Source of the DNA: a virus
Lineage: Duplodnaviria > Heunggongvirae > Uroviricota > Caudoviricetes
IMG/VR virus record: IMGVR_UViG_2531839662_000018
Span: 1-12,903 of that record
DNA: 12,903 nt
Strand: one strand, 5' to 3'
Part shown: one piece after another, positions 1 to 12,903 of the stretch
Numbering within the stretch: position 1 is the first letter of the stretch
Layout of the letters: each line of letters begins with the position of its first letter
Position numbers and translations under genes: made by a program
Notes under the pieces: model-generated
What the model was told of the DNA's origin: nothing
The model's database searches: none
What the model saw: only the letters and a program-made list of their open reading frames with translations

Positions 1-1242
1 ATGGCACGAAAAACCACCCCACTAACCATTACGGAGATCAAAAACGCACGACCAGGGGAAAAGGAATACACCCTGCAGGATGGTGGAGGATTATTTCTTC
101 TGGTGAAACCCTCCGGATCAAAAATCTGGCGTTTTACGTACTATCGCCCGGCAGATAAAAAACGGACTATCATCAGCCTCGGATCGCTGAATGATGTTTC
201 CCTGTCCGATGCCAGAGAACGACGGAATGAATACAGGTCACTCATAGCGAAGGGAGTTGACCCACAGGACCACGAACGCCGGAAACGTGAAGCAGAGAGT
301 CGGAAAAAGGGCAACACGTTCGAAAAAGTTGCCTCGGACTGGTACGAGATGAAAAAAGGCCAGAATCTGGCTTACAACACGATTAAGGATATCTGGCGAT
401 CCCTGGAAAAATACGTATTCCCGTACATCGGAAACACGCCAATAGATACCCTCACAGCTCGCCGCTTTGTTGAGATACTCACACCCATTAAAGCACGCGG
501 CAACCTGGAAACCCTGAAACGCGTTTTACAACGCATCAATGAAGTGATGGATTTTGCTGCCAACAGTGGGCTGATTGACATCAACACCGCCGCGAACGTC
601 CGCAAGGCATTCCCCTCACCCACCAAAAAGCACATGCCAACCATCCGACCGGAACAGCTACCGCAGCTAATGCACGATTTATCGGTCGCCAGCATAGAAC
701 GGCAAACCAGATTGCTGATTGAGTGGCAACTGCTGACCGTAGCACGCCCAGCCGAAGCAGCCGCCGCACGCTGGGAAGAAATAGATCTCGATGCCGAAAC
801 CTGGACGATTCCAGCCGGACGCATGAAGATGCGCCGTGACCATGTGATCCCTCTTTGCGGTCAGGCGATGGCTGTACTGGAAACAATGAAGCCAATCAGC
901 GCACACAGGGAACATGTTTTTCCCAGCCTTAAAAATCCAATGCTGCCAATGAGCAGCCAGACCGCTAACGCTGCATTGCGCCGGATGGGATACGCTGGTG
1001 TGCTGGTGTCTCACGGATTACGCGCCATATTCAGTACAGCAGCGAACGAGGAAGGATTCGAGCCGGACGTAATCGAGGCCGCACTCGCACACGTGGACAC
1101 GAACGAGGTAAGGCGAGCATATAACCGAAGTAACTACCTGGAAAAGCGCGTGGTGCTTATGCGCTGGTGGGGGGAATTTGTAGAGGCCGCAGCTACCGGA
1201 GTGACCATAGCCAGTGGTAAAAGGGGTATCCGTGCCGTGTAA
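1..1242 (+). CDS. int: P4-type tyrosine integrase/recombinase (413 aa)
   Basis: Full ORF from ATG at position 1. N-terminal arm-binding region with the DGGGL motif typical of P4-family integrases (KEYTLQDGGGLFLLVKPSGSKIWRFTYY). C-terminal catalytic region has HGLR, a later AHV, and the nucleophile Tyr in RRAYNRSNYLEKRVVLMRWW. Identified by eye from conserved motifs. Confidence 0.95.
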   Translation: MARKTTPLTITEIKNARPGEKEYTLQDGGGLFLLVKPSGSKIWRFTYYRPADKKRTIISLGSLNDVSLSDARERRNEYRSLIAKGVDPQDHERRKREAESRKKGNTFEKVASDWYEMKKGQNLAYNTIKDIWRSLEKYVFPYIGNTPIDTLTARRFVEILTPIKARGNLETLKRVLQRINEVMDFAANSGLIDINTAANVRKAFPSPTKKHMPTIRPEQLPQLMHDLSVASIERQTRLLIEWQLLTVARPAEAAAARWEEIDLDAETWTIPAGRMKMRRDHVIPLCGQAMAVLETMKPISAHREHVFPSLKNPMLPMSSQTANAALRRMGYAGVLVSHGLRAIFSTAANEEGFEPDVIEAALAHVDTNEVRRAYNRSNYLEKRVVLMRWWGEFVEAAATGVTIASGKRGIRAV

Positions 1243-1340
1243 CTGTACAAAAAGCCAGTGCAACCAGTGAAAACCATGCCAAACCATCGTATAATTGCCA
1301 CAAATTTAACGACAAGGCCGGAGTATATGAAAATTCTATT

Positions 1341-1571
1341 ATGCAAAATACCACCGCCTACGGCGAAGGCCTGCAACTGGCCTTAATGGCAAATCGTGAA
1401 TTCTGGTCAACGTACGATCCGGAAGACAAATCAACAGCCCCCACAAAACACGAGGTAGTCAGTTTTTTGCGCTCGCGTGGCGCATCGAAAAATCTGGCTG
1501 AAAGCATCGACAAGGTGCTGAGACCCACCAGCCTTAAATGCGGTGGACGACCTAAGAAGTGGAAGCGGTAA
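1341..1571 (+). CDS. hypothetical small protein (76 aa)
   Basis: Open frame between int and alpA with a protein-like, charged composition. Its stop is followed immediately by an intrinsic terminator. The ribosome-binding site is weak: the nearby GGAG (1319-1322) is better placed for a 19-codon ORF at 1327. A TATAAT hexamer lies at 1290-1295. Confidence 0.4.
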   Translation: MQNTTAYGEGLQLALMANREFWSTYDPEDKSTAPTKHEVVSFLRSRGASKNLAESIDKVLRPTSLKCGGRPKKWKR

Positions 1572-1576
1572 TCACA

Positions 1577-1607
1577 ATAGCGGCCCTTTGCGGTCGCTAT
1601 TTTTTTG
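1577..1607 (+). terminator. rho-independent terminator after the int / small-ORF unit
   Basis: A roughly 9-bp stem (ATAGCGGCC / GGTCGCTAT, one G.T pair) with a CTTTGC loop, followed directly by a T7 run (1600-1606). Confidence 0.6.
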
Positions 1608-1636
1608 CAAAAAGAAAAGCGTAATCAATGAGATAA

Positions 1637-1676
1637 AAAACAGTGGGTACCGTTTTAAAACGGTGGGTACTGTTTT
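1637..1676. promoter_or_regulatory. two tandem 20-bp near-palindromic sites upstream of alpA (candidate operator)
   Basis: AAAACAGTGGGTACCGTTTT (1637-1656) is followed directly by AAAACGGTGGGTACTGTTTT (1657-1676), 18/20 identical. In each unit the 8-bp arms are inverted repeats of one another. They lie about 65 bp upstream of the alpA start. Confidence 0.4.
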
Positions 1677-1741
1677 TCCCGCCCTGCCCTGTTTTACCGT
1701 ATTTATCACCGGAATACGCCGGATTAACGAGGTAAAACATA

Positions 1742-1948
1742 GTGGAAACAATCAGAAAAATCCTTACCCGTCAGGAAGTAAAAAATATTCTGCGCATCAA
1801 GGCAGACAGTTCGCTACAGGACATGATCAACGCCGGAAAATTCCCGAAAGGCTTCAAAATCGGTCTGCGTCGTGTTGGCTGGTATGAAGATGAGGTGCTG
1901 GCCTGGCTGAAAGAACGCGAGGAAGAAGCGCGCGGAACGGCTGCGTAA
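1742..1948 (+). CDS. alpA: AlpA-family (excisionase-like HTH) transcriptional regulator
   Basis: 68-codon ORF with a GTG start and a GAGGT Shine-Dalgarno about 10 nt upstream. The sequence fits the AlpA pattern (FPKGFKIGLRRVGWYEDEVLAWL), and int followed by alpA is the canonical order in these islands. Confidence 0.85.
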   Translation: METIRKILTRQEVKNILRIKADSSLQDMINAGKFPKGFKIGLRRVGWYEDEVLAWLKEREEEARGTAA

Positions 1949-1967
1949 TGGTGTGAGGCGTAACGCG

Positions 1968-2954
1968 ATGAACATAACAAAAAGCGCCCCGTTGCCGGAG
2001 CGCCTTTGTGAACGAATAGCCTACTGCGCCATATTGCTTACTGTCTACGAGGCAGATTATAGCGTTGTGGTCGCACAGAGTGAAGGCGCTGATCACCGTT
2101 ACTACAGCACGCCAGAAATGCAGAATATTTTGCTGCAAAATGCCGTTGGTCACGCCGTCCGGAAAGCAAAAAATTTTGCTGGTGGCGCGACTGATGCGAT
2201 TTTGTCAGGTCGCCAGGTGCTGATCAATCTGATGTCTGATTTCGTTCTGGATAAAACAAAGGCGACCGCAGAGAGCCGCCAGTGGAAAAGCTACATACTT
2301 GAACGCATCACCAACAATGCCACATTTGCGGCTGGTGGGCAAAGCGTAACCGGAAAAAAATTCCGGTGGGGCTATTCCTGCTCTTTGGCCTTGCGACGCT
2401 GGCGGTATTCAACTTCTCGCTTTAATGCTGCTGTTACAAACTGCCCTGTACTTTCACCAGGCATTTTTACCGCCTCAACATTGTTCATAACTTCATGCGG
2501 AACCCTTGCCGCAACTGTTTGTGATTTTGCGTTTACTGCTTTTGTTGCCATGTTGTGTACCCCTTACAAAAAACAAATGCAGTATGCAGGAAAAAAAATA
2601 AGTGTTCAACACTTGACGTGTTTAACACCAGGGCTTAAATTGGTGTTCAACACCTTACTGATGCAAGGTGCAGAAACGACGAAACCCGGCAGTGCGCTAA
2701 CACTAACCGGGCTTCTAACCACCAACGATAGAAAGCGTATCGAGGTAGCTATGAGAAATTATACCAGACACCCGCAAGGGCGGGACTCGTACAACCTGAA
2801 TAAATACATCTGGCGTTTTATCGCCCTGAGCACGGCACAACCGCGCGTGATTCACATCGTGGCCACCAGCGAACAGGAAGCACGCCAGCAATCCCCGGCT
2901 GGCTGCGTGATGGTATTCGCTGCCCGTATTCGCCAGGAGGTACGCCATGATTAA
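1968..2954 (+). CDS. long stop-free frame (328 aa from ATG 1968); probably a composite, not one protein
   Basis: The 5-prime 400 nt has a GAGG ribosome-binding site 9 nt upstream and coding-like, purine-rich first codon positions. The middle (2372-2654) reads as Cys/Ser/Thr/Phe-rich junk, is antisense to a well-formed RHH ORF, and contains three perfect palindromes plus a promoter. The 3-prime 204 nt (ATG 2751, GAGGT site) ends in an ATGATTAA overlap with the next gene. A gene finder would likely call the whole ORF; I consider that call doubtful. Confidence 0.3.
   Translation: MNITKSAPLPERLCERIAYCAILLTVYEADYSVVVAQSEGADHRYYSTPEMQNILLQNAVGHAVRKAKNFAGGATDAILSGRQVLINLMSDFVLDKTKATAESRQWKSYILERITNNATFAAGGQSVTGKKFRWGYSCSLALRRWRYSTSRFNAAVTNCPVLSPGIFTASTLFITSCGTLAATVCDFAFTAFVAMLCTPYKKQMQYAGKKISVQHLTCLTPGLKLVFNTLLMQGAETTKPGSALTLTGLLTTNDRKRIEVAMRNYTRHPQGRDSYNLNKYIWRFIALSTAQPRVIHIVATSEQEARQQSPAGCVMVFAARIRQEVRHD
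2372..2551 (-). CDS. ribbon-helix-helix (Arc/CopG-like) transcriptional repressor candidate, 59 aa
   Basis: Minus-strand ORF MATKAVNAKSQTVAARVPHEVMNNVEAVKMPGESTGQFVTAALKREVEYRQRRKAKEQE, below the ORF-track length cutoff. It has a beta-strand/helix/helix RHH pattern, an AAGGGG Shine-Dalgarno 8 nt upstream, and G/A-rich first codon positions, while the opposite strand looks antisense. It is transcribed divergently from the adjacent palindromic operators. Confidence 0.55.
   Translation of the reverse strand: MATKAVNAKSQTVAARVPHEVMNNVEAVKMPGESTGQFVTAALKREVEYRQRRKAKEQE
2601..2654 (+). promoter_or_regulatory. rightward sigma70-like promoter overlapped by three palindromic operators
   Basis: Palindromes AGTGTTCAACACT (2601-2613), GTGTTTAACAC (2618-2628) and GGTGTTCAACACC (2642-2654). 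Candidate -35 TTGACG (2613-2618) and -10 TTAAAT (2635-2640) with a 16-bp spacer. One operator sits just upstream of the -35, one in the spacer and one just after the -10. Confidence 0.55.
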
Positions 2955-3312
2955 CCTGTCAATTTCTGACCTTAACAGCATTCAGTTTGATGAGAAATTC
3001 ACCGGGCAGCTACTGGTTAACGTGGAGAATGGACGCGTGGCAAGTAATTATCACCTGCCGGATGGTGCAATTGCCGGAAGCGTTGAAGCATTGCTGGAGC
3101 TGGCAGAACGTGCGCGACTGATTAAGCCGTTAACGAGCCATCACGATGATGATCTGCATTTTACCGGACGCATGGTGAGTCACTACGAAAACGGCGTTGA
3201 AGTATCCCGAGAACGGCTGCGAGATGATTGCTGTTTCGGAACACTGCCGGAATTTATCGAATTGCTGACCAGTTGCGGTTATCAGGTTATTCAGGGGGTG
3301 AATCATGGATAA
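2947..3312 (+). CDS. hypothetical protein (121 aa); paralog of the next gene
   Basis: Strong AGGAGG Shine-Dalgarno 6 nt upstream. The start overlaps the upstream frame stop (ATGATTAA). Its N-terminal half resembles the downstream 66-aa protein. Confidence 0.75.
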   Translation: MINLSISDLNSIQFDEKFTGQLLVNVENGRVASNYHLPDGAIAGSVEALLELAERARLIKPLTSHHDDDLHFTGRMVSHYENGVEVSRERLRDDCCFGTLPEFIELLTSCGYQVIQGVNHG

Positions 3313-3505
3313 TCAGCAAGCAACAATGACAATTACCCTGAGTGTGCCAGATGATTTCACCGGACGCATACTGGTTTACCTGGATAAAGGGAAAGTGAAA
3401 TCACAATGCCGACTGAAAAGTAATGAGATTGTTGGTTCTCCTGAATTTTTTTCTGAACTCTGTATTCGTGCGGAAATAAAACCGGAACTGCTGACAGGAA
3501 AATAA
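3305..3505 (+). CDS. hypothetical small protein (66 aa); paralog of the N-terminal half of the previous gene
   Basis: Overlaps the previous gene by 8 nt, with a GGGGGTG ribosome-binding site. The two proteins share an alignable block (DDFTGRILVYLDKGKV ... IVGSPEFFSELCIRAEIKP versus DEKFTGQLLVNVENGRV ... IAGSVEALLELAERARLIKP). Confidence 0.7.
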   Translation: MDNQQATMTITLSVPDDFTGRILVYLDKGKVKSQCRLKSNEIVGSPEFFSELCIRAEIKPELLTGK

Positions 3506-3509
3506 AACC

Positions 3510-3809
3510 ATGAAAAAGAAAAATTCTGGCTTTACTGCCAGTGGTCTCCCTCGGCCTGAAATCCGCCCCGGCGATATTTTCCGGGATAACTACGGCGGCA
3601 CGGTAACGATTAAAAGTATTGCCGGACGGTGCGTTACTTACCGCCGTGATGGGTACAGCTACGACTGCGTGATGCCTGTTTATCAGTTCCGGCGTGATTT
3701 TTCACTGATACAGGCCACACCACGCAAACAGCCCACCAGCAACGCAAAGGCACGGGCAAATATTCAGAAAATGAAAAACATGATTAACGCATTCAGGGGC
3801 ACAAAATGA
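3510..3809 (+). CDS. hypothetical protein (99 aa)
   Basis: Tightly packed in the operon; its stop overlaps the next start (ATGA). No family recognised. Confidence 0.7.
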   Translation: MKKKNSGFTASGLPRPEIRPGDIFRDNYGGTVTIKSIAGRCVTYRRDGYSYDCVMPVYQFRRDFSLIQATPRKQPTSNAKARANIQKMKNMINAFRGTK

Positions 3810-5221
3810 AACTGGCACCGAACTTAAAAAAACAGCCACACGACAAAATGACCGAAGTCATTATTTTTGCGGGTAGTGATGCCTGGGCGCACGCGAAACA
3901 GTGGCAGGAGCAGGACGGGCGACTTGCTGGCGACAACGTGCCGCCTGTATGGCTGGGAGACAGCCAGCTTGACGAACTGGCAGACCTGAAAATTATCGAC
4001 GATGGTCGCTATTGTGTCCGGCTGTACAAGGCAGGCCACATCAAGCCGTCAAATATTAACGCCATCGGGCAAAAGCTGGCGGCGGCAGGTGTACGGGATG
4101 CGAATTATTACCCCGAGGGAATGCACAGCCAGAAACGCGAGGAGTGGCGCGAATATCTGGAACGAGAGCGCCAGAAAAGACTGTCCGGAGAGATACCAGA
4201 GGAAGAAAAAAACGACCAGCGAAAAACCACACTGCCAATGAGTATTGGATCTGCAGGGTACGACACACAGCTTGATTATGTCGTTAAGGGCGTGATTCCG
4301 GCTAATTCATTGTGCAGCACATACGGCGCGAGCGGTTCCTATAAATCGTTCCTCGCGTGTTCCTGGGCGTGTCATGTTGCCACGGGTCGCCACTGGGGAG
4401 GCCGCAGGGTGGCGCATGGTTCGGTGATGTATGTCGTCGGTGAAGGTGGCATTGGTGTCCCTCGTCGTATCAAAGCATGGGAAATCGTTAATGATGAACG
4501 GGTGAAAAATCTGTACCTGGTAAACCGCCCGATTTTTCCGGCGGTCCCGCTTGATGTTGATGAAATGGTCATCGCTTCCCGTCAGGTTGAACGGGAAACG
4601 GGTAAACCGGTACGCATGATTATTCTGGATACGCTGGCGCGTTGCTTTGGCGGTAATGATGAAAATGACGCGCGGGATATGGGGGCGTTTATCCGTGGAT
4701 GTGACGAACTGAAACGACGCACAGGGGCTACGGTACTGGTGGTTCACCATTCCGGCAAGGATGAAACAAAAGGGGCGCGTGGTTCCAGTGCATTTCGTGC
4801 ATCTCTGGACGCTGAATACCGTATTCGCCGTGAAGGTGCGGACAGTGAAGCCCTGGTTATCTCCTGCACCAAAATGAAGGACGCGGAGGAACTGAAAGAG
4901 GCTGCATATGATTTACGCGTGGTGGAGCTTTTTACCGACACTGACGGGGAGTTAATCACGTCGCTGGTGGTTGTGGATAAGCCGCGCCCACCTGTTGAAC
5001 TGGAACGCATCGAGGAGGCCGGGAACAAGACGGAAAATCACGCTGCGCTATGGCAGTGCATCAGAACGCGAACAGCACACGGGGAGGCGTGCACTATCGC
5101 CCTTCTCCGCGATGATATGAAAAAGCTGGGGTATGAAATGAAAAACTTCCGGCGCTGGCTGTACAAGCTGGAAAGCGACGGCGTAATCGCTATTGACGGT
5201 GATTATGTGCGCCCACTGTAA
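3806..5221 (+). CDS. replication protein with RepA-like RecA-fold helicase/ATPase domain (471 aa)
   Basis: P-loop-like YGASGSYKSF, Walker-B-like MIILDTLARCF and the LVVHHSGKD motif typical of RepA/AAA_25-type replicative ATPases. The N-terminal domain of about 160 aa is of unknown type. The gene is followed immediately by an iteron array. Confidence 0.85.
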   Translation: MKLAPNLKKQPHDKMTEVIIFAGSDAWAHAKQWQEQDGRLAGDNVPPVWLGDSQLDELADLKIIDDGRYCVRLYKAGHIKPSNINAIGQKLAAAGVRDANYYPEGMHSQKREEWREYLERERQKRLSGEIPEEEKNDQRKTTLPMSIGSAGYDTQLDYVVKGVIPANSLCSTYGASGSYKSFLACSWACHVATGRHWGGRRVAHGSVMYVVGEGGIGVPRRIKAWEIVNDERVKNLYLVNRPIFPAVPLDVDEMVIASRQVERETGKPVRMIILDTLARCFGGNDENDARDMGAFIRGCDELKRRTGATVLVVHHSGKDETKGARGSSAFRASLDAEYRIRREGADSEALVISCTKMKDAEELKEAAYDLRVVELFTDTDGELITSLVVVDKPRPPVELERIEEAGNKTENHAALWQCIRTRTAHGEACTIALLRDDMKKLGYEMKNFRRWLYKLESDGVIAIDGDYVRPL

Positions 5222-5612
5222 AAAGTGAGGAGCAAAAGTGAGGATGGCGGGTAATTTAACAAAAAATCAACGCCACTCCTCACTTTCTCACCTGTATATA
5301 GGTCAAAAAGTGAGGAATGAAAAACATATTGTAAAACAAGACATTACAACAACAAGAAAAACAGGTGAGGAGCAGGACGGGAATAACAAAAAGTGAGGAA
5401 CAAAAGTGAGGAATGGTGAGTTAATAGAAATGAGGTAATAAAAATAACAGGTAGGTTAAAAAACACACCATGCAAGATATTAACTAAAACTTAACTATTT
5501 ACCTCACTTTTGCGTATATATAAGGATTAAAAAGTGAGTACTTAAAAATACATTTAAAATCATATTGTTATTAACTTCATAAATTTTCACTGTGCAGCAG
5601 GTGAGGAATTAA
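5221..5612. repeat. iteron array / candidate replication origin
   Basis: At least nine copies of the core AAAGTGAGGA, with CAGGTGAGGA variants, in both orientations (for example 5221-5232, 5235-5245, 5278-5287 reversed, 5305-5319, 5361-5372, 5387-5399, 5402-5415, 5501-5510 reversed, 5598-5610). They are embedded in AT-rich DNA with no ORF, directly downstream of the rep gene. Confidence 0.75.
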
Positions 5613-5687
5613 AAAATCAGGAATGTTAAAAATGAAAACAGAATGTTGTGTCAGTGCCGTTGGGCAACGTAGCAATCAGTAAAAACG

Positions 5688-6230
5688 ATGGGGCAAAGCA
5701 TGACTAAGCTGACCATTAACAGAAAACCTAAAGGCATTTACGGCACGCCGCAGAAAACGACGCAGGCGGCGCAGGAGCAGGATAAAACCACGTCGGCGCA
5801 TAAAGTGATGCCCGGTAACCAGAAAGCGCAGCAGAAGCCCACAGGGGCGACACCGTGGCGGCATATGACCAAACGCCAGCGCAAAAACCGCAGGCGCGTT
5901 AACCGCCTTATCGAACTGTGGCCAGAATTATTCAGCCGGGAAGCACCGAAGCCGCTTAAGGTGGGGATATTTGACGACCTGATGCAGGATCTCGCCGTCA
6001 GGGGGCTGGCATTCGGGCCAGGGGCATTACGTGCGACGCTGGCATCTTATGCGCAGTGTCCGCGCTATTACCGCGCCTTAATGGCTGGTGGGGTACGCTA
6101 CGACCTGAAAGGCCAGCCGTGCGGCGAGGTGACACCACAGGAACAACAGGACGCAGAAACGCGGCTGGTGGCGCTGAATGAGAAGCGCAAACGTCAGCGC
6201 CGGGCAGCAAAGGAGAAAACAGGCGCATGA
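5688..6230 (+). CDS. ProQ/FinO-domain RNA-binding protein
   Basis: The central region (PLKVGIFDDLMQDLAVRGLAFGPGALRATLASYAQCPRYYRALMAGGVRYDLKGQPCGEV) matches, from memory, the conserved ProQ N-terminal/FinO domain. Basic Lys/Arg-rich N- and C-terminal tails. An alternative start at ATG 5700 has a better GGGG ribosome-binding site. Confidence 0.85.
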   Translation: MGQSMTKLTINRKPKGIYGTPQKTTQAAQEQDKTTSAHKVMPGNQKAQQKPTGATPWRHMTKRQRKNRRRVNRLIELWPELFSREAPKPLKVGIFDDLMQDLAVRGLAFGPGALRATLASYAQCPRYYRALMAGGVRYDLKGQPCGEVTPQEQQDAETRLVALNEKRKRQRRAAKEKTGA

Positions 6231-6514
6231 TTCACGACAGCAAAGCGGAAGCACTGGAAGCGCGTGGTCTGTACCGGAGAGCGGCGGCGCGGTGGGCTGA
6301 GGTCATCATGCTGGCGAATGATGACAAGGCACGGGAACAGGCGGCAAAACGTCGCGCGGAATGTATCCGCAAGGCAGCACGCCCACCAGCACGGCAGGAT
6401 AATTTCGGGGAGATGCGCGAAACCATCAGCCGGGCACATGCCGGGATGGGATTACATCAGCCCAATGGTAAGGCATTCAGGAAATACCCTGGATCGAAAA
6501 ATTGCAGTCAGTGA
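6227..6514 (+). CDS. PerC-like small transcriptional regulator candidate (95 aa)
   Basis: The start overlaps the previous stop (ATGA). The N-terminus (KAEALEARGLYRRAAARWAEV) resembles the conserved opening of PerC-family regulators, recalled from memory without alignment. Basic, Arg-rich protein. Confidence 0.6.
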   Translation: MIHDSKAEALEARGLYRRAAARWAEVIMLANDDKAREQAAKRRAECIRKAARPPARQDNFGEMRETISRAHAGMGLHQPNGKAFRKYPGSKNCSQ

Positions 6515-6519
6515 CGGAG

Positions 6520-6544
6520 GCCGGGATTTTTCCCGGCTTTTTTG
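6520..6544 (+). terminator. rho-independent terminator 1 after the ProQ/FinO-PerC unit
   Basis: 7-bp stem GCCGGGA / TCCCGGC with a TTTT loop, followed by TTTTTTG. Confidence 0.75.
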
Positions 6545-6555
6545 TGCCAGTAAAA

Positions 6556-6590
6556 AGCCCGCAGCCAGAAGTGTTGCGGGCTTTGTTTTT
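6556..6590 (+). terminator. rho-independent terminator 2 (tandem)
   Basis: 8-bp stem AGCCCGCA / TGCGGGCT with an 11-nt loop, followed by TTGTTTTT. Confidence 0.7.
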
Positions 6591-6715
6591 CAGGTGATTG
6601 AAGTCAATGGGAAGAACGCGATCATCATGCGTTATTGTTTCATAAATTGCAATGATGTAGATCGTCATTTCAGTTTGTGCAATCATAATCGTTGTTTTGT
6701 TCAGGAGATATGACT

Positions 6716-6889
6716 ATGAGAAAAGCCAGCGTGAAACCCGTTTTACTCGCTCGTGAGCAGATTGAAGCATTACAGCGCATCCAGGACGAGGAACGCCGCA
6801 ATTCTCCGCTGGGGATTGCTCCGAGCATTCATGAGGTCGCCCGGCGTTTAATGCAGCGGGCGCTTTATCCCGTAGAACGTCCGGCCTGA
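6716..6889 (+). CDS. hypothetical small protein (57 aa), first gene of the downstream operon
   Basis: ATG at 6716 with an AGGAG Shine-Dalgarno (6703-6707, 8-nt spacing). The ORF-track start at 6692 lacks a ribosome-binding site. An AT-rich promoter-like region lies at 6600-6700. Confidence 0.55.
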   Translation: MRKASVKPVLLAREQIEALQRIQDEERRNSPLGIAPSIHEVARRLMQRALYPVERPA

Positions 6890-6928
6890 TGGTCGTGATT
6901 TTTTGGTGAAAAAAGAGAGGTGGTAACA

Positions 6929-7513
6929 ATGCCAGCAAGCAAAGAAGATTTGCGATTAAAACTGATGGAGGTGGTTAACGCTCTGTCAGAGTCGCAGGGC
7001 AGCACTCCGCAGGAGATTATCGAAATTCTGAATGCGATCCCCGCACAGGATTTCACAAAAGCAGATGAGGACAACGCGAATCAAAACATCGTCGCGTCAG
7101 TCGAAGATGAATCCTCACTGGCAGAAGCCCAGGCTAAAGCAGATTCCGCATACAGCAATATGGGCCGTCGCGCTCCAGCCCCGTTTGCTGGTGAAAAGTC
7201 GATGGATTACCGCAAGCGTGCATTAATTGGTGCACAGAAGCTGGCTAAAAAATTCAGTGATGTGGATATTCGTTCCGTTTCAGATTCTGCAACGCTGGCG
7301 GTGCTGGAAGATCAGATTTACCAGGCTGCAAAAGACAGTGTTCAGTGGGCCGTGGAAAACACGCCGGGCCATTTGGGTAAAACCGTAAGAATGGATGAAG
7401 CTGGTCGTCGTATTACTGAATATCAGGGCGATCCGAACGTCTGGCTGAACGCCTTCAAAATCCCTCCCCGTCGCCTGGTCAAAATTAACACTGCAAGCCT
7501 CGCGGGGGCATGA
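6929..7513 (+). CDS. hypothetical protein (194 aa)
   Basis: ATG at 6929 with an AGAGAGG ribosome-binding site 8 nt upstream; the ORF-track start is a GTG at 6920. Acidic N-terminal half. No family recognised. Confidence 0.75.
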   Translation: MPASKEDLRLKLMEVVNALSESQGSTPQEIIEILNAIPAQDFTKADEDNANQNIVASVEDESSLAEAQAKADSAYSNMGRRAPAPFAGEKSMDYRKRALIGAQKLAKKFSDVDIRSVSDSATLAVLEDQIYQAAKDSVQWAVENTPGHLGKTVRMDEAGRRITEYQGDPNVWLNAFKIPPRRLVKINTASLAGA

Positions 7514-7577
7514 AAAACGTGCTGAGTTCAGCCCTGCCGGATTTGGCGGGGCTTATTGCTTATAACCGGATAACATT

Positions 7578-8249
7578 ATGCTTTTAACAGAAATTGAGGC
7601 GGCAAAGCAGATTCGGGACGGTCAGCTACCGTCGCCTTATCAGTTTTCCAACATGTGGCTGGTTAACCTGCGTATTACAGGAACCGGTATGGCCTACCGC
7701 GCCGAAGAAAAAGAATTTGTCTGGCGTTCACCGCAAACTTATCTCAATCCGCAGTTCCTGGAACGTTGCGCCGGAGTACCCGTCATTATCGACCATCCCG
7801 AAGGCAAAACCATTGAAGACGTTGGCGAACGGTCGCGCATTATTGGCACCGTCATGTTGCCGTATATTCGCGGTGACGAGGTGTGGGGTGTATGCCGGAT
7901 TTACGGGCAGGAAATCATCGATTACATCCAGAAAGCACGGGGGGAGGTATCCACCAGCCCGTCGGTTGTGTTTTGTGGTGCGTCCGGTGGGGCAGAAGTT
8001 CCTGATGTAATGGGCGAGGACAATTTTTTCATTGAGGGTACGCCATTCCTTATCGATCACGTTGCGCTCGTGCCGCTTGGTGTTTGGGATAAGGGCGGGA
8101 AACCATCGGGTGTGGAGGTAACAACGCCGACAGCAGAAGAACAGCTCGCCGGAATGGTCCGGGACGTTATTGATGCGGCCTGCAAGCCAGCCCTGGAAAA
8201 ACTGGAAGAAATATCCGGGCGGCTGGCTCAACTGGAAAAAACAGAGTGA
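7578..8249 (+). CDS. hypothetical protein (223 aa)
   Basis: Protein-like composition; only a weak ribosome-binding site. A faint resemblance to phage prohead-protease-like folds (PVIIDHPEG ... IGTV ... EVSTSPSV) is too weak to call. Confidence 0.75.
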   Translation: MLLTEIEAAKQIRDGQLPSPYQFSNMWLVNLRITGTGMAYRAEEKEFVWRSPQTYLNPQFLERCAGVPVIIDHPEGKTIEDVGERSRIIGTVMLPYIRGDEVWGVCRIYGQEIIDYIQKARGEVSTSPSVVFCGASGGAEVPDVMGEDNFFIEGTPFLIDHVALVPLGVWDKGGKPSGVEVTTPTAEEQLAGMVRDVIDAACKPALEKLEEISGRLAQLEKTE

Positions 8250-8256
8250 GTGAATC

Positions 8257-8874
8257 ATGAAAATTGCTAAAAACTTAAATCTGATTATCCCTGTGCGCAC
8301 TGAAAAGGGAAATGGCTGGATCCATGCCACGCCGATCAGCAAAGAGGTGTTTAAAGAGCATTTCTTCATCCTGAGTAAAACCTTTTCTGCCATTTTTTCT
8401 GAAGGTCTTGGTGTTGTTGCGGGTCCGCGCGTTGCCTGCCTTATGCTGGAGAAAATCTCCCGTGACTCCGGTTTATGGGATGGGGAGAAAGGCATACGTA
8501 ATACGCTCATAAACGAAATTATTCGCCTGGCAAACCTTGTTTATCCAGTGGAGGGCAAAGGCTACGACACAATCCCTCTCGATATGGCGCTGGAGCGTGA
8601 AATCGTTGATTTGGACGAAGTGGCGGGTGAACTTGTTTTTTTTACATGCGTCTCGTCGATAAATTCCCCGGAGCAGACGAAGGGGACTATGGATGCGGTG
8701 AATGGAATATGGAGCACTCAATGCTCGTCCTTGAGTCTTACGGAATGGATCGCTTCATTGCCGACATTGAAGCCTGCCGTCAGTTCTGGCGCGACGGCGA
8801 ACACGTCATCAGCGACATCCTCGACTACTCAGCCGGAGCCGGATTCAGAGACATCTGTGCAGATTCCGGTCTGA
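8257..8874 (+). CDS. hypothetical protein; zero-frame product 205 aa, candidate upstream partner of a -1 frameshift pair (G-like)
   Basis: The first 129 codons are protein-like. After the T8 run (8636-8643) the zero frame becomes Ser/Thr-rich low complexity until its stop at 8874, while the -1 frame carries a well-formed ORF. Confidence 0.6.
   Translation: MKIAKNLNLIIPVRTEKGNGWIHATPISKEVFKEHFFILSKTFSAIFSEGLGVVAGPRVACLMLEKISRDSGLWDGEKGIRNTLINEIIRLANLVYPVEGKGYDTIPLDMALEREIVDLDEVAGELVFFTCVSSINSPEQTKGTMDAVNGIWSTQCSSLSLTEWIASLPTLKPAVSSGATANTSSATSSTTQPEPDSETSVQIPV
8636..8643 (+). other. T8 homopolymer forming a U UUU UUU slippery heptamer (candidate -1 programmed frameshift site)
   Basis: Zero-frame codons GTT TTT TTT ACA. 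A -1 slip re-pairs both tRNAs on TTT and continues as TAC ATG into the frame of ORF 8646-8939. Confidence 0.4.
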
Positions 8875-8939
8875 ATGTAAAAACAGCAGCTCAGTTTCGT
8901 GAGCTGCTCAAATTCAAAAATCCCGCAGGAGTATTGTAA
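8646..8939 (+). CDS. -1 frame ORF (97 aa from its first ATG), probably the C-terminal extension of a frameshift fusion (GT-like)
   Basis: This frame opens at 8631 just before the slip site. Its stop overlaps the start of the 679-aa gene (TAATG). Protein-like composition (FIADIEACRQFWRDGEHVISDILDYSAGAGFRDICADSGLNVKTAAQFRELLKF). Internal ATGs at 8709 and 8721, the latter with a GGAG ribosome-binding site, allow independent initiation as an alternative. Confidence 0.5.
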   Translation: MRLVDKFPGADEGDYGCGEWNMEHSMLVLESYGMDRFIADIEACRQFWRDGEHVISDILDYSAGAGFRDICADSGLNVKTAAQFRELLKFKNPAGVL

Positions 8940-10978
8940 TGTCAGGTAATCAGATGCCAGTTCTAACGCTGGACGTTAATGAAGAACACCTCAAACGGCT
9001 TGAGGCAATTTTTGAAAAGTATCGCAACGGGCTGATGATCGGCCCTGCCGGAACGCCGATGAAAATACCGGGGCAAAGTGGGCGCAGCGTGGGGGCAGGC
9101 TTACCCGTGGCGGCAAAATCTGGTCGGACAGGACCGGATGTATCCGGGAGAGTGAGGGACGAAAAAGGGCGCTTTGTCGGCAGCGGAAAAACAGCAGATT
9201 CGTTCGTAAGCAACTATAAAGGTCGCGGCGAAACGATGTTTGATAAGTATCTCAGCGGGCTGGGGAAAAATGCCCAACAGACGCTGAAAACTTACAAGCA
9301 GATCAATTCTACACTACAGACGACCACTTCAAGATTAAACAACCTGTTTAAAACAACCGTATCGTGGGGAACAAAACTCTCGGTTATGGGCGTTGCCGGA
9401 CCGTTTGGCTTTGGCATGATGTCCCGTAGTGTTGTAGAGAAACAGAAAAATGCAGATGAGCTGGTGGCAACGCCAGGAGAGTTAAAGGCGGCAGAAAGCA
9501 CTTATTCGCCTTATTTTTCCGGTGTTGGCAATGTGCTCAATACACTGGCAGCAGCACAAAATGATATATCGCATCCTGCCCGCGTCGGCCTGCTTAATCT
9601 GGGGCTAAATCCTGATAAAAACGCGACTGAAAACCTGCCTGTATTCCTGAAAAAGGTTGCAGCGCTGGCAAAGGAATATCAGGGAACTGGTCTTACCCAG
9701 AGCAATTTCAGAGGAATGGGGCTTGGATGGGTAAATTTTGGTCTTACTAACCAGTTAGTCAAATATCAGGACAAAATACCTGAACTCAACAAAGAGTTTT
9801 CGTTACGTGCAGCGCAGAATGATTCGTTACTGACCTCTGCACATACAAGTAAATATCAGAATCTTACCAGTAACCTGGAAAAAAACTGGGATCGGCTTAC
9901 CAGCGGATTTCAGGGAGCAATGGCGGGGAATGAAGACGCTTTAATCAGAATGTCTGATGGTACCACGAATGCTGCCCTGAATTTCATGAATGGTGAGAAC
10001 TTTAAAAGGATTCTGACTGATGTTGAAACGGGGCTGGATAAACTTGGTAAGTACGTTAATGGCCCGGATTTTAATAACGACCTGAACAATTTTGCCGAAA
10101 ACGTTGCAAAGGTCACCAAGGCACTTAGCGGATTTGTTGGTTTTGCCGTTGAACATCCCTGGCTTTTTGGGGCCGCAGTGCTTGCGGGGCCATCAAGAGT
10201 TGGTGCCGTGGCAGCCACAACAACCGGAGTTGCCGCTCGTGTTGTCGGTGGAAGTCTTCTTGGGGCTACAGCCGGAACAGTAGCAGGATTGGCTATTCCT
10301 ACAAATAACACACCTACCACCAGTGAGGAAATGAAAGGGCTGGAGGGGCGTTTCAACTTTGATTATTTTAACGAAGTGCAGGAGTGGCAAAAAAACAATC
10401 CGGGTAAGGTCTGGCCTGGAGGATTGCAGGGATTTTCAAATCAAGTAAACAGATCTGCATATTTATCCAGAGGGATCAGGAATAACAATCCCGGAAATCT
10501 TAATTTCGCAGGACAAAAAGGGGCTACTCTGGAATCGGGGCCAAATGCCCGTTTTGCCAGCTTCCCGACGATGCTGGAAGGCATTGCCGCCTTAGATCGG
10601 CAGGTAATGCTATACCTGAAACGCGGCAAAAATACGATTGATCAGATTATTGATATTTATGCCCCTTCATCTGATGGAAATAACACATCGTCCTATAAAA
10701 GCTATCTTTCTCAGTACACCGGATTAGGTGTTAAGGAGAAAATTGATGGTTCTAATTTTGAGGTCATGAAAAAGCTAATTCAGGGCATTATTAACCATGA
10801 AAATGGTGCTGCCGCTAAAGCTGTAAGTGTTGAAGATGTGATCCGGGCGCTGGCTATGAATCGTGGGATTGTCCCTGCAGCAGGAAACAATGATCAGAAC
10901 GTTAAGTTGGAAATTGTTCGGAACGCTGGTGCCGATTACTTCGCGCAACTAATTGGTGCTCAACGGTTCCTGGGATGA
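8939..10978 (+). CDS. large protein (679 aa) with Gly/Ala-rich hydrophobic core; tape-measure-like candidate
   Basis: Strong AGGAG ribosome-binding site, coupled to the upstream ORF. An Asn/Thr/Gly-rich N-terminal 400 aa. A hydrophobic segment FAVEHPWLFGAAVLAGPSRVGAVAATTTGVAARVVGGSLLGATAGTVAGLAIP (nt about 10143-10300). A C-terminal domain of about 220 aa containing the motif RGIRNNNPGNL (nt about 10471-10503). Confidence 0.9.
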   Translation: MSGNQMPVLTLDVNEEHLKRLEAIFEKYRNGLMIGPAGTPMKIPGQSGRSVGAGLPVAAKSGRTGPDVSGRVRDEKGRFVGSGKTADSFVSNYKGRGETMFDKYLSGLGKNAQQTLKTYKQINSTLQTTTSRLNNLFKTTVSWGTKLSVMGVAGPFGFGMMSRSVVEKQKNADELVATPGELKAAESTYSPYFSGVGNVLNTLAAAQNDISHPARVGLLNLGLNPDKNATENLPVFLKKVAALAKEYQGTGLTQSNFRGMGLGWVNFGLTNQLVKYQDKIPELNKEFSLRAAQNDSLLTSAHTSKYQNLTSNLEKNWDRLTSGFQGAMAGNEDALIRMSDGTTNAALNFMNGENFKRILTDVETGLDKLGKYVNGPDFNNDLNNFAENVAKVTKALSGFVGFAVEHPWLFGAAVLAGPSRVGAVAATTTGVAARVVGGSLLGATAGTVAGLAIPTNNTPTTSEEMKGLEGRFNFDYFNEVQEWQKNNPGKVWPGGLQGFSNQVNRSAYLSRGIRNNNPGNLNFAGQKGATLESGPNARFASFPTMLEGIAALDRQVMLYLKRGKNTIDQIIDIYAPSSDGNNTSSYKSYLSQYTGLGVKEKIDGSNFEVMKKLIQGIINHENGAAAKAVSVEDVIRALAMNRGIVPAAGNNDQNVKLEIVRNAGADYFAQLIGAQRFLG

Positions 10979-11029
10979 TTTAAATACACGCGCTTTCCGG
11001 CGCATTAATACAGTCTGAGGGGAAGTGTC

Positions 11030-11554
11030 ATGTTTATGAGCAAGGCAGAATATGCCAAACACAAAGGCGTAAGCCGCCAGACAGTTTACGACTGGATCGA
11101 GAAAGGCGAAGTGGTCATGTCCGGTAAAAAAATCGATGTGGAAGCGACAGAGCAGCGGAACAGCCCACCAGCACAGGGAAAAGATACCGTTTCTGAAATG
11201 TGGCCAGAGAGAACGCTGGAAATGACGTGGGGCGAGTTCTGGAAAGCAGTTAAGGCCAGAGACGGTAAAATCCCTGCACCAGTAACGGACGATGACATAC
11301 AGCAGCGTGTGCAGGATGCAGCCGGGGAATTATGCTGTGAAGTGCAATTTCTTGATGATGGTGCTATCTGCCTTGAGGATTATGCTGGGCAATATTACTT
11401 TGAGCAGTATGATTTTCGGGAAAATGCCAGGCTGGCAATTCGTATGCTGCGTTGTGAGCTCTGCTATGTTGCAGGTGATTGTCCCGATGAGCTGGATAAC
11501 TGGAGTGAAGCCGGACTAAACGCCCTGGCTGAGTGGGAAAAATCATCCCATTAA
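11030..11554 (+). CDS. HTH DNA-binding protein (174 aa), excisionase/terminase-small-subunit-like N-terminal HTH with Cys-rich C-terminal domain
   Basis: GAGGGGAAG ribosome-binding site. The N-terminus (KAEYAKHKGVSRQTVYDWIEKGEV) is a classic HTH of the Xis/AlpA/TerS-Nu1 type. The C-terminal half has six Cys (CCEVQF ... CLEDY ... CELCYVAGDC). Confidence 0.8.
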   Translation: MFMSKAEYAKHKGVSRQTVYDWIEKGEVVMSGKKIDVEATEQRNSPPAQGKDTVSEMWPERTLEMTWGEFWKAVKARDGKIPAPVTDDDIQQRVQDAAGELCCEVQFLDDGAICLEDYAGQYYFEQYDFRENARLAIRMLRCELCYVAGDCPDELDNWSEAGLNALAEWEKSSH

Positions 11555-11565
11555 TGACCGTAAAA

Positions 11566-11857
11566 TTCGCGAAAAGTGTCAAGTCAGGCCGTCTGCCGGG
11601 TTGACACTTTACACTCTGAACGCGAAAAAGTGTCAACCTCGCTGTAAACCCCGCCGTTACTGGCTTTGCGCCAGATTTACCACGTCAAAAAGCCGAAAAA
11701 ATCGCGAAAAGTGTCAAGTTGCCATGCTTAGAAATGCTAAGGTTTGATAAGGTTTTTCGCGAAAAAGTGTCAAGTGTGTCAACCTGCGATGTTAAGGTTT
11801 GTTAAGGTCTTAAGCCGGAAAGTGTCAACCAGCCCCCTAAGATTTCCTAAGGTGTAA
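11566..11857. repeat. array of two interleaved short repeat families (candidate protein-binding or packaging/origin-like site)
   Basis: Family 1 is CGCGAAAAGTGTCAAG and variants (11566-11584, 11621-11638, 11702-11720, 11757-11784, 11817-11830, plus an inverted copy TTGACACTTT at 11601-11610). Family 2 is (C/T)TAAGGT(T/C)T in six copies (11738-11757, 11791-11814, 11836-11857). The region has no ORF. Confidence 0.7.
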
Positions 11858-11860
11858 ATC

Positions 11861-12040
11861 ATGACCATCACCGAAGCCGATATGCTGGAGATGATCCGCA
11901 GCATTGCCGGAATCAGACAACCAGCAAGCAAAATTAACAGGTGTTCAGCGCCTGTTTCCGTTGTGCTGCAACAGGAGCGCCACCAGCATGATGATGTGAG
12001 GCCGTATCAGTGGCGGAAACCGGACAGGCCGCGACGGTGA
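11861..12040 (+). CDS. short paralog (59 aa) of the terminal gene, with an internal deletion
   Basis: MTITEADMLEMIRSIAGIRQPASK ... RPYQWRKPDRPRR. Both ends are homologous to the 94-aa protein at 12619-12903 by eye at DNA and protein level, but about 40 central residues are missing. It has an AAGGTG ribosome-binding site and is below the ORF-track cutoff. Confidence 0.45.
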   Translation: MTITEADMLEMIRSIAGIRQPASKINRCSAPVSVVLQQERHQHDDVRPYQWRKPDRPRR

Positions 12041-12148
12041 GCGGAGCGTTCGGTAAGGCTACAGCCAAGCCTTACATTAAGCCTACGGGTAACCCTTCGA
12101 AGGGGCTTTAAAGGGGAGATGATTATCCTTACCCGTTGATAAACAAGC

Positions 12149-12168
12149 AAACCTCAAATTTGAGGTTT
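12149..12168. promoter_or_regulatory. perfect 20-bp palindrome AAACCTCAAATTTGAGGTTT (one of a pair)
   Basis: Perfect inverted repeat. A related copy AAACCTCGATTTGAGG lies at about 12349-12364, roughly 200 bp downstream. Confidence 0.4.
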
Positions 12169-12466
12169 GTATCTGCCTGACTTATTTTTGTGCTAAGTTG
12201 TTGATATATCCGACGACGCAAAATTGCGCTGGCTACATCCCTCACATCTGAGGACTGTTAACCAGCAGGCCGGAATATATTCACAAACTACGAAATTTTC
12301 GCAGTTTAATTACTCGCCAGCTTAATCGCTAACCCACTGATATTTTCGGAAACCTCGATTTGAGGAGACCGGAACGTCTACATGACTGCATCACCATAAC
12401 GATTTCCGTTACAGTTGATGTGCTTTTTTGCTGGTAAGGCCTAACCCGTTGATTCTTCCACAATTC

Positions 12467-12518
12467 CCCATTGGGGGAGGCTGGGCGGCCTGCTGTGGAC
12501 TTTTCCACCATTGGTGGG
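12467..12518. promoter_or_regulatory. pair of related palindromes upstream of the terminal gene (candidate operator)
   Basis: CCCCATTGGGG (12467-12477) and CCACCATTGGTGG (12506-12518) share the core CCATTGG, with centres 40 bp apart, about 100-150 bp upstream of the ATG at 12619. Confidence 0.4.
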
Positions 12519-12618
12519 AAACATGGCACCACATCCACCAGCTTAAACGCGCTTCACCTTCCCGTTATCAGTCGCCACAATTACGGCATTGTTTCCCCAT
12601 CCTCTGGAGGCCATGACA

Positions 12619-12903
12619 ATGACCGAAGCCGAAATGCTCAAAATGATTCGCCAGATTGCCGGGATCAGACCACCAGCAGGCAAACAGGAGGCCACGCAGC
12701 CGGACAGCGTGATAGCCGAAAATTACGCGCGTGTGGTGGCTGAGGTGATGCGCCGTGACGGTATCGAGCTTAACGGCGTTGATATGCGCGACATACGAAT
12801 CAGAGTTCTGGAGATGTTGTCATATCGTCGCCGCGTGGAGATGTACCGGGAGAGCGAGAAAAAGACTTACCAGTGGAAAAAACCGGAGCGGCTGCGTACG
12901 TAA
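12619..12903 (+). CDS. hypothetical small protein (94 aa)
   Basis: ATG at 12619 with a GGAGG Shine-Dalgarno at 8-nt spacing; the ORF-track starts at 12589 and 12613 lack a good ribosome-binding site. Highly charged, protein-like sequence (MTEAEMLKMIRQIAGIRPPAGKQ ... KTYQWKKPERLRT). The stop is the last codon of the window. Confidence 0.75.
   Translation: MTEAEMLKMIRQIAGIRPPAGKQEATQPDSVIAENYARVVAEVMRRDGIELNGVDMRDIRIRVLEMLSYRRRVEMYRESEKKTYQWKKPERLRT

Follow-up and report, generated by a model that had tools for sequence, protein, structure and literature searches.

A candidate virion-remodelling operon built around a split and reordered helper protease-scaffold in a phage satellite of Escherichia coli UMNF18

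Introduction

What would a mobile element gain from a short operon of three uncharacterised genes placed between its own regulators and a set of tail-like genes? The question is raised by positions 6590-8249 of a 12,903-nucleotide stretch of viral DNA (IMG/VR record IMGVR_UViG_2531839662_000018, positions 1 to 12,903; hereafter, the window), in which an earlier note had recognised genes for proteins of 57, 194 and 223 amino acids (aa), here named p57, p194 and p223. The note regarded them as possible morphogenesis components if the downstream genes were tail-like and, otherwise, as part of an unrecognised six-gene system. According to our analysis, the window corresponds to a phage satellite of Escherichia coli UMNF18, and the region probably constitutes the promoter and the first three genes of a late virion-remodelling operon that would redirect capsid assembly of a helper phage. 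We are confident that this satellite operon encodes helper-derived head-assembly proteins, and we propose more tentatively, at somewhat short of even chances, that the redirection concerns capsid size.

Satellites are known to hijack the capsids of their helpers with scaffolds of their own, such as CpmB of the Staphylococcus aureus pathogenicity islands (SaPI), Sid of P4 and TcaP of the phage-inducible chromosomal island-like elements (PLE). Hijacking of tails has been shown only recently, in PLE, and the packaging module of most phage-inducible chromosomal islands (PICI) of E. coli has no assignment. The locus presented here is informative in this respect, as both the donor gene and the helper can be named: the module appears as a re-engineered helper protease-scaffold, and the helper as a Rac-type myophage.

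Results

Two halves of one helper head protein

The genes p57 (6716..6889), p194 (6929..7513) and p223 (7578..8249), all on the + strand, are open reading frames (ORFs) annotated in the RefSeq record of UMNF18, and their existence as proposed in the earlier note was confirmed by sequence divergence. When island copies of E. coli, Citrobacter, Pantoea and Klebsiella are compared, nonsynonymous divergence (dN) is 0.09-0.44 and synonymous divergence (dS) is at least 1.3 or saturated, with dN/dS ≤ 0.2 wherever estimable and about 0.07-0.11 for p57; the three are real genes under purifying selection. They occur together in at least four genera and at least three integration sites, with up to four copies per genome. 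A sister island of strain STEC719 (L032 34527-48355) carries the same late operon with another integrase and a DUF927 primase between smrA and abgR, approximately 6 kb from ttcA, the attachment site of Rac-SA53-type prophages.

The faint likeness of p223 to prohead proteases, which the earlier note had judged too weak to call, became firm with profile searches. Residues 1-180 carry the DUF2213 domain (Pfam PF09979, 27.5 bits against a cut-off of 22), the protein matches PHROG head-maturation-protease families, corresponding to positions 115-329 of phrog_6216, and it has a prohead/assemblin-type fold. Alignment of 27 homologues from islands and phages shows H73 and the S125-T-S127-P stretch to be invariant and D160-H161 nearly so, a pattern that fits a Ser-His(-His) protease of the assemblin type and on which catalysis is predicted; the likeness to T4 gp21 and to herpesvirus assemblins is more distant.

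Comparison with rac43, a 430-aa protein of phage Rac-SA53, joined p223 to its neighbour. By BLAST, p223 aligns with rac43 residues 1-228 at 53% identity, its C-terminal helix (186-222) being the counterpart of the first helix after the protease in rac43, and p194 residues 39-188 align with rac43 residues 280-423 at 59% identity over 150 residues. Further, p194 residues 44-188 correspond to positions 402-545 of the same phrog_6216. The extreme C-terminus of p194 is nearly identical to that of the helper protein, with GRRITEYQGDPNVWL the same in both and about 4 differences in the last 30 aligned positions. Hence p194 and p223, formerly taken as separate uncharacterised proteins, are two halves of one helper head protein in swapped order, and p223 is, by homology, a stand-alone capsid-maturation protease domain copied from the helper.

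To place this arrangement, one genome per species was scanned and phage GenBank records were added. The order protease, then C-terminal domain, was found in all phage-type loci with both parts, namely 16 of 20 loci of the species scan together with Rac-SA53 and PdC23, the remaining 4 being short or truncated contigs that hold just the protease part; 14 phage GenBank records showed the same order, and in those checked both parts are one annotated gene. In all, the phage copies considered come from 24 retrieved loci and these 14 records. The phage polypeptide consists of the protease, a long charged coil and the C-terminal domain. Conversely, the order was p57, p194, p223 in every island examined. 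Since all phage copies are protease-first and all island copies are swapped, the permuted order is specific to islands, and the satellite version reads as a phage gene that was cut, had its order swapped, lost the charged coil and has a terminator-like hairpin between its halves.

The genomic setting differs as well. The rac43 gene follows the portal and head-morphogenesis genes and lies two genes upstream of the major capsid gene; in phage-type loci with enough flanking sequence, a tail chaperone, a frameshift ORF and a tape-measure gene are found 6-7 kb downstream. This portal-to-capsid position holds for the phage homologues and not for the island, which has neither gene. Among DUF2213 phage proteins, Pa193 gp24 and rac43 share the fold and the conserved His and Ser of p223, and the C-terminal part of rac43 is homologous to the C-terminal domain of p194. 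These phage proteins are single chains of 430-550 aa encoded between portal and capsid genes, some with an N-terminal Nudix domain, whereas the island version consists of two genes in reverse order, without the Nudix domain and the charged coil and with no capsid gene nearby.

A scaffold-side domain in p194

The AlphaFold2 model of p194 (mean predicted local distance difference test score, 75) comprises two island-specific N-terminal helices (5-23 and 27-36), a disordered linker (44-58) and a helical domain with a beta-hairpin, including a helix-loop-helix at 56-103. No significant structural neighbour was found for this model or its helix-loop-helix, nor any match for p194 in Pfam or NCBIfam. 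A Nudix domain is absent from p194, and only some distant phage homologues have a true one, which is N-terminal; judged by domain content, the RefSeq names 'NUDIX hydrolase' and 'TolA' on p194-type proteins are transfer artefacts. Protease-scaffold homologues in RefSeq are likewise named 'NUDIX hydrolase', 'TolA' or 'IF-2', which are likely annotation artefacts. Correcting these misleading database names is a practical outcome of the analysis.

A function for the p194 part is suggested by Pseudomonas phage Pa193, after which PF09979 has been renamed Pa193_gp24. The gene for its gp24 stands immediately ahead of the decoration and capsid genes; in the structure obtained by cryo-electron microscopy, pentamers of a gp24 helix-turn-helix are bound to the inner side of the capsid at the five-fold vertices, and gp24 was proposed by the authors as the scaffolding protein (PMC11456595). 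Because gp24 is capsid-bound and a proposed scaffold, DUF2213 proteins are best read as protease-scaffold fusions, and we infer that p194 carries the scaffold-side, capsid-binding-type domain of the helper protein. No sequence link of p194 or p223 to Pa193 gp24 or to another solved structure was obtained; the profile compared with solved structures matched Nudix proteins only, through the N-terminal domain of distant phage homologues, and this link was discarded.

A satellite of the PICI type

The window is identical to positions 2,651,638-2,664,540 of the E. coli UMNF18 chromosome. It begins at the start codon of the integrase gene, which lies 210 bp from tRNA-Pro and beyond yejM, and ends with the final gene of the island, ahead of yejO. 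The tyrosine integrase (1-1242), with Phage_integrase and Arm-DNA-binding domains, marks one island end and site-specific insertion at tRNA-Pro. The backbone continues with an AlpA regulator (1742-1948; PF05930, 33.3 bits against a cut-off of 21), an Icd-like gene, DUF4222, a RepA-type AAA_25 helicase, ProQ/FinO and PerC, followed by the operon under study; the helicase (Pfam E = 3e-44) represents the replication module and is replaced by DUF927 primases in sister islands. Capsid, portal, large terminase, sheath, tube and lysis genes were not found in the 12.9-kb island by RefSeq, Pfam or PHROG annotation. Assignment to the Gram-negative PICIs follows from the gene make-up (integrase, AlpA, RepA helicase, ProQ and PerC). 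On this gene content the element is a PICI-type phage satellite of 12.9 kb and not a prophage, as the earlier note had supposed, and its mobilisation by a helper is predicted.

Regarding the Icd-like gene, the window holds a 333-aa ORF with a GTG start at 1953-2954, of which RefSeq calls only the final 67 codons, under the name of an Icd-like cell-division inhibitor; a 319-aa gene is called at the equivalent place of a sister island (L037), and the 333-aa ORF has no Pfam match.

A Rac-SA53-type myophage as helper

UMNF18 carries a Rac-type prophage at 1.69-1.73 Mb with a complete and intact set of packaging, head and tail genes. The association between island and phage was evaluated in 5426 complete E. 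coli genomes, the phage being represented by the segment from the protease-scaffold to the capsid gene (coverage at least 80%). The island-specific p57-p194 segment was present in 34 genomes and the phage head module in 81 (1.5%), and at least 19 of the 34 island-bearing genomes also carry the phage head module, with an odds ratio of about 109 (Fisher p = 3e-27) in a statistic that ignores shared ancestry. We regard the resident Rac-SA53-type myophage of UMNF18 as the most likely helper. This phage occurs in 88 complete E. coli genomes, among them E. coli W and its derivatives. The portal of Rac-type prophages (phrog_146, DUF1073; L045 17806-19242 and L032 921-2357) is named 'anti-CBASS protein Acb1 family protein' in RefSeq, which is likely another artefact.

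Genes downstream of the trio and the six-gene question

The genes that follow p223 are indeed tail-like, so that the alternative offered by the earlier note for this case, namely that the trio are further morphogenesis components, was borne out. A tail assembly chaperone (8257..8874, +; 205 aa) is the first gene of a tail cassette and is 83% identical to rac52 of Rac-SA53, whose gene is flanked by those for the tail tube and the tape measure. Immediately past the upstream stop codon of the -1 frame, eight consecutive T include a slippery run, T TTT TTT (8637-8643, +); the -1 frame ORF (8646-8939) ends one base into the tape-measure ATG, matches phrog_14324 and is conserved in phages. A -1 shift would extend the chaperone to 8939, the G/GT arrangement of long-tailed phages, and is unannotated in RefSeq. 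The tape-measure protein (8939..10978, +; 679 aa) has a C-terminal lytic transglycosylase-like region, matches phrog_7694 over its full length as well as phrog_2276 (tape-measure protein), and is 50% identical to the N-terminus of the Rac-SA53 tape-measure protein.

The idea that the six genes form an unrecognised system was not sustained, as they do not behave as a fixed block. A p194 protein of identical sequence recurs both in islands that have the chaperone and tape-measure genes and in islands that lack them, and in the latter a homologue of p174 (below) directly follows p223. In Citrobacter and Pantoea islands a tape-measure gene lies upstream of p57, the Pantoea island has a baseplate-hub homologue between p57 and p194, and in the Klebsiella island the trio is followed by an Sf6-type small terminase. 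The extra 339-aa ORF of the Pantoea island was considered as a capsid protein and rejected, since it is this baseplate-hub homologue.

Within UMNF18, the island and the resident prophage are 88% identical in the full-length tape-measure protein and 86% in the chaperone (window 8257-10978 against L045 27101-29843), and only 53% in p223 and 59% in the p194 C-terminal domain. Therefore, the tail cassette is read as a recent optional acquisition, and the split protease-scaffold as an old, island-specific adaptation.

The operon core ends with p174 (11030..11554, +), which has an N-terminal helix-turn-helix. It matches phrog_57 (small terminase; E = 5e-7) over its N-terminal 42 residues only, its Pfam HTH_17 match is below the cut-off, and no relatives were found in PDB; homologues follow the trio in three other islands (L007, L034 and L035). 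On these grounds p174 is a candidate small-terminase-like protein for packaging specificity.

At the far island end, 59-aa and 94-aa proteins (11861-12040 and 12619-12903) are paralogues of about 29% identity, both in phrog_1561. Islands with identical p194 differ in the cargo after the 59-aa gene (L034 12671-14163 and L035 12504-13943, equivalent to approximately window 12040-12620), with a DUF4747 pair in one and a SEFIR/TIR protein in the other, the window having the 94-aa paralogue; the site looks like a hot spot for defence-like genes.

Operon borders and signals

A PerC-family regulator gene (6227..6514, +; PF06069, E = 2e-32) is the last gene of the upstream unit and lies outside the operon; in related islands, too, a PerC gene precedes the 57-aa gene at a short distance, as its immediate neighbour in L034-L037 and L042 and two genes upstream of it in L033. 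The PerC unit is closed by two tandem intrinsic terminators (6516..6590, +), identified by fold energies and U-tracts, in agreement with the double terminator described before. The first stem-loop lies within 6512-6550 (-18.3 kcal/mol, z = -3.6) and is followed by U6, and the second spans 6554-6584 (-20.9 kcal/mol, z = -4.4) and has a U-rich tail.

The promoter region (6640..6708, +) was delimited by promoter scan, motif search and cross-genus conservation, and the earlier description of a promoter-like stretch with a repeated TGCAAT(G/C)AT motif stands in part. TGCAATGAT (6648-6656) and TGCAATCAT (6678-6686) are the sole exact copies in the window, the second overlapping the -10 element of a weak sigma-70-like site at 6662-6689 (TCGTCA-16-CATAAT; -35 at 6662-6667, -10 at 6684-6689). 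However, scan sites of such quality are at chance level (8 observed against 6.1 expected in shuffled sequence), no enrichment over chance was seen in the window when one mismatch was allowed, and across islands the first copy is kept only as GCAA. In the alignment of islands from the four genera upstream of p57, the terminator, the proximal block GATCnnnATTnCnGnnTnTGCAAnnATnATnnTTGT, which includes the second TGCAA and the -10 element, and the Shine-Dalgarno sequence TCAGGAGA (6701-6708, +) are conserved, the rest having diverged; such conservation argues more persuasively for a promoter than either the scan or the motif repeat. From the spacing to the Shine-Dalgarno sequence, p57 starts at the ATG at 6716 and not at that at 6710. 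As the -35 element is poor, the need for an activator is suggested, and the promoter may be activator-dependent.

The 14-nt promoter motif TGTGCAATCATAAT (6676-6689) also occurs once in Rac-SA53 (L005 7896-7909), overlapping the kilR start codon; an operator common to island and helper is the less probable reading, the likeness ending at about 16 nt and being probably due to chance. The helper late-promoter region downstream of Q shows no likeness by eye to the island promoter. In a Klebsiella aerogenes island, the genes for PerC, ProQ, SSB and the trio are closely preceded by one for a protein with a Q-like antiterminator domain (PF03589; L033 7253-7906), an arrangement which hints that antitermination may govern read-through of the terminators around the operon.

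Between p194 and p223, a stem-loop (7530..7553, +) with a 10-bp stem and a poor U-tail coincides with the hairpin noted earlier as a possible attenuator. The intergenic stretch that contains it (7514-7577) folds at -22.7 kcal/mol (z = -2.8), and a stem-loop of different sequence is found at this junction in each of the four lineages, in Pantoea and Klebsiella islands as a canonical terminator with U6-U7. It is plausibly a partial terminator or attenuator. No terminator was found between 8249 and the gene starting at 8257, as the note had also seen.

p57 at the head of operons with varying cargo

For p57, no match to a known family was obtained in Pfam, NCBIfam, PHROGs or PDB profiles, including scans of 21 and 25 family members. 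The p57 family is small: 1.84 billion representatives include 56 clusters of it, almost all 45-115 residues long. By eye, its alignment has a strand-helix-helix look (KPVLL, Q..L..IQ..ER, S..G.AP.IH.IAR.L..KAL), on which p57 is possibly a ribbon-helix-helix-like small DNA-binding regulator of the operon.

The contigs of six distant homologues of p57 were examined (among them L038 2878-7322, L039, L040 209-3499, L041 9001-13028 and L042 2793-6100). They mostly stand right after the replication module or the PerC gene, at the head of an operon, and in 5 of the 6 contexts virion genes can be recognised in that operon. TMP_3 is accompanied by a Dit-like protein in one context and stands by itself in another; the others have a P2-type chaperone (TAC_7) and, where the tape-measure gene would be expected, a gene for a 601-aa protein; a gene for an 800-aa protein with a capsid gene behind it; or genes for the P22 gp7 and gp16 ejection proteins. 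The sixth locus has no recognisable genes. Satellites with podophage ejection proteins have apparently not been described as such.

Since the cargo varies between p57-led operons, a generic role of p57 is indicated, most simply operon regulation, rather than one tied to a single capsid type. A wider generalisation, which we consider possible although rather doubtful, is that the p57-led operon of enterobacterial AlpA/PerC-type satellites is a swappable slot for helper-derived proteins that act inside the virion or are ejected with the DNA, allowing the satellite to customise capsid interior and DNA-delivery apparatus. The cargo found so far would comprise the split protease-scaffold for Rac-SA53-type myophages, chaperone, tape-measure and hub or Dit proteins for long-tailed helpers, and P22 gp7/gp16-type proteins for podophages. 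Were this so, the cut-and-swapped protease-scaffold would represent a new way to resize or re-programme capsids, with an attenuator between scaffold and protease that resets their ratio.

Discussion

The reading that we favour, redirection of helper capsid assembly by the satellite, can be laid out as a mechanism. Upon helper induction, the operon would be switched on from its activator-dependent promoter, under a leader common to related satellites, p57, which is probably a small DNA-binding regulator. The hairpin at 7530-7553 would lower transcription into p223, so that p194 would exceed p223; scaffolds are normally required in far more copies than proteases. Through its near-helper C-terminal domain, p194 would bind the helper capsid protein and act as an alternative internal scaffold, in which a short N-terminus peculiar to the islands, substituting for the long charged coil, would alter procapsid geometry. 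The p223 protease would supply, or compete for, the maturation cleavage, and may be recruited through its C-terminal helix (186-222), with p174 directing packaging. Assembly of helper capsids would thus be redirected, probably to small capsids suiting a 13-kb element. The 12.9-kb island amounts to about a quarter to a third of the 45-52-kb helper genome, a ratio that fits small-capsid redirection as in P2/P4 and 80alpha/SaPI1.

Several points weigh against this proposal. Size redirection is not required, as packaging of multimers into full-size heads could serve instead. p223 is without the C-terminal domain of the phage protein, which leaves its entry into procapsids unexplained. For p57, profile scans gave no match to a known DNA-binding family, and p174 is weakly terminase-like and bears no similarity to the small terminase (TerS) of Rac-SA53, so that a copy of the helper protein was rejected. 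The co-occurrence with the helper involves many related porcine enterotoxigenic E. coli strains, whose shared ancestry the statistic does not consider, and for this island the satellite assignment is drawn from its genes.

Four other explanations were weighed. The best of them, though considerably less probable than redirection, holds that the trio only interferes with the helper: p194 and an untargeted p223 would be dominant-negative poisons of helper capsid assembly, lowering helper yield as a defence of the bacterial population, and no special capsid would be made. A nearly identical p194 C-terminus is what a competitor for the same binding site needs, and satellites commonly block their helpers, as PLE does with Rta (PMC12987554). 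However, the catalytic residues of p223 are invariant in all island lineages, and a poison need not keep them; the constant linkage of the trio to a terminase-like gene, in the position of a packaging module, also argues for a part in particle production. The two readings, interference and redirection, are compatible with each other.

Still less probable is that the genes are compatibility parts, by which the satellite would bring along a diverged protease and scaffold of its own, together with a chaperone and tape-measure protein in some copies, to suit several helpers or to escape targeting host or helper factors, with capsid size unchanged. The chaperone/tape-measure cassette fits this explanation, being optional and a recent, near-identical copy (86-88%) of the helper genes, as does the presence of a baseplate-hub homologue in the Pantoea island; the set resembles the substitution of tape-measure, chaperone and hub for chimeric tails by PLE (PMC12987554). 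It leaves the split, the reordering and the loss of the coil in every island unexplained, since a spare copy would keep the phage architecture.

A non-virion function such as defence, in which the capsid-binding domain senses phage capsids and the protease is the effector, appears very unlikely. Capsid-sensing defences do exist, and islands with identical p194 carry SEFIR/TIR or DUF4747 genes nearby, but PADLOC gave no matches, the protease has a prohead/assemblin fold, and tight linkage ties the genes to those for packaging and tails as well as to one particular helper. That the locus is a decaying Rac-like prophage remnant without present function is the least credible, since, beyond the homology of its proteins to prophage structural proteins, it shows dN/dS ≤ 0.2, a conserved promoter and terminators, and the same non-phage gene order in at least four genera and at least three integration sites with up to four copies per genome, within a compact island with integrase, AlpA and replication module.

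Redirection of helper capsid assembly by the split protease-scaffold remains the explanation that we prefer, and it can be tested directly, because the helper is identified and present in laboratory strains such as E. coli W. The locus further offers a natural experiment on how the scaffold to protease ratio, and the linkage of the two, matter in capsid assembly.

Comparison with known systems

PICIs, capsid redirection through scaffold mimicry and satellite tape-measure proteins are all of already known kinds. In the literature searched, we found nothing specific on this island, on UMNF18 as a PICI host or on a satellite-borne DUF2213 protease, and no satellite module made from a helper protease-scaffold that was cut, reordered and separated by an attenuator.

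Among Gram-negative PICIs, EcCICFT073 and EcCIMP1 share with the window an integrase at the end, AlpA, a primase/helicase module, a PerC-family gene, a size of about 13 kb, site-specific integration and a helper-virion-like module downstream of the replication genes. EcCIMP1, a related AlpA/PerC island, was experimentally induced and transferred by its helper, and encodes proteins resembling helper virion proteins downstream of its primase (PMC11773190). Mobilisation, shown for EcCIMP1, is predicted for the present island. The described E. coli PICIs differ in that packaging is redirected through Rpp, or in that the module has no assigned role, and we found no report of a DUF2213 protease, a split protease-scaffold or a tape-measure gene among them in the searched literature.

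The P2/P4 pair resembles our system in that the helper scaffold, gpO, is a protease-scaffold fusion and the satellite changes capsid size. P4 does not copy gpO, its Sid being an external scaffold unrelated to it; homologues of Sid, Psu and Delta were absent from the island in Pfam and PHROG scans.

In Staphylococcus, capsid-size redirection by SaPI1 depends on CpmB and CpmA, encoded in a packaging operon beside the small terminase. The principle is alike, since a satellite protein with the capsid-binding C-terminus of the helper scaffold replaces that scaffold (for context, PMC12409344 and PMC8569155). There is no sequence relationship, however, and in the island, read from its genes, the donor is a protease-scaffold fusion whose protease half was kept as a separate gene.

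Finally, the tape-measure protein, chaperone and baseplate hub encoded by Vibrio cholerae PLE build chimeric tails, and predicted tape-measure genes were noted in other satellites (PMC12987554), although a 2025 preprint considered tape-measure proteins otherwise absent from satellites (PMC12822802). The tape-measure and chaperone genes of the window, and the hub found only in the Pantoea island, correspond to the functions that PLEs substitute (PMC12987554). This likeness concerns the neighbours of the trio, and the element family and the helper differ, as does the degree of identity to the helper, which is 20-41% for PLE against 86-88% for the island cassette, itself optional. The window thus indicates that satellite tape-measure genes are not confined to the PLEs of Vibrio.

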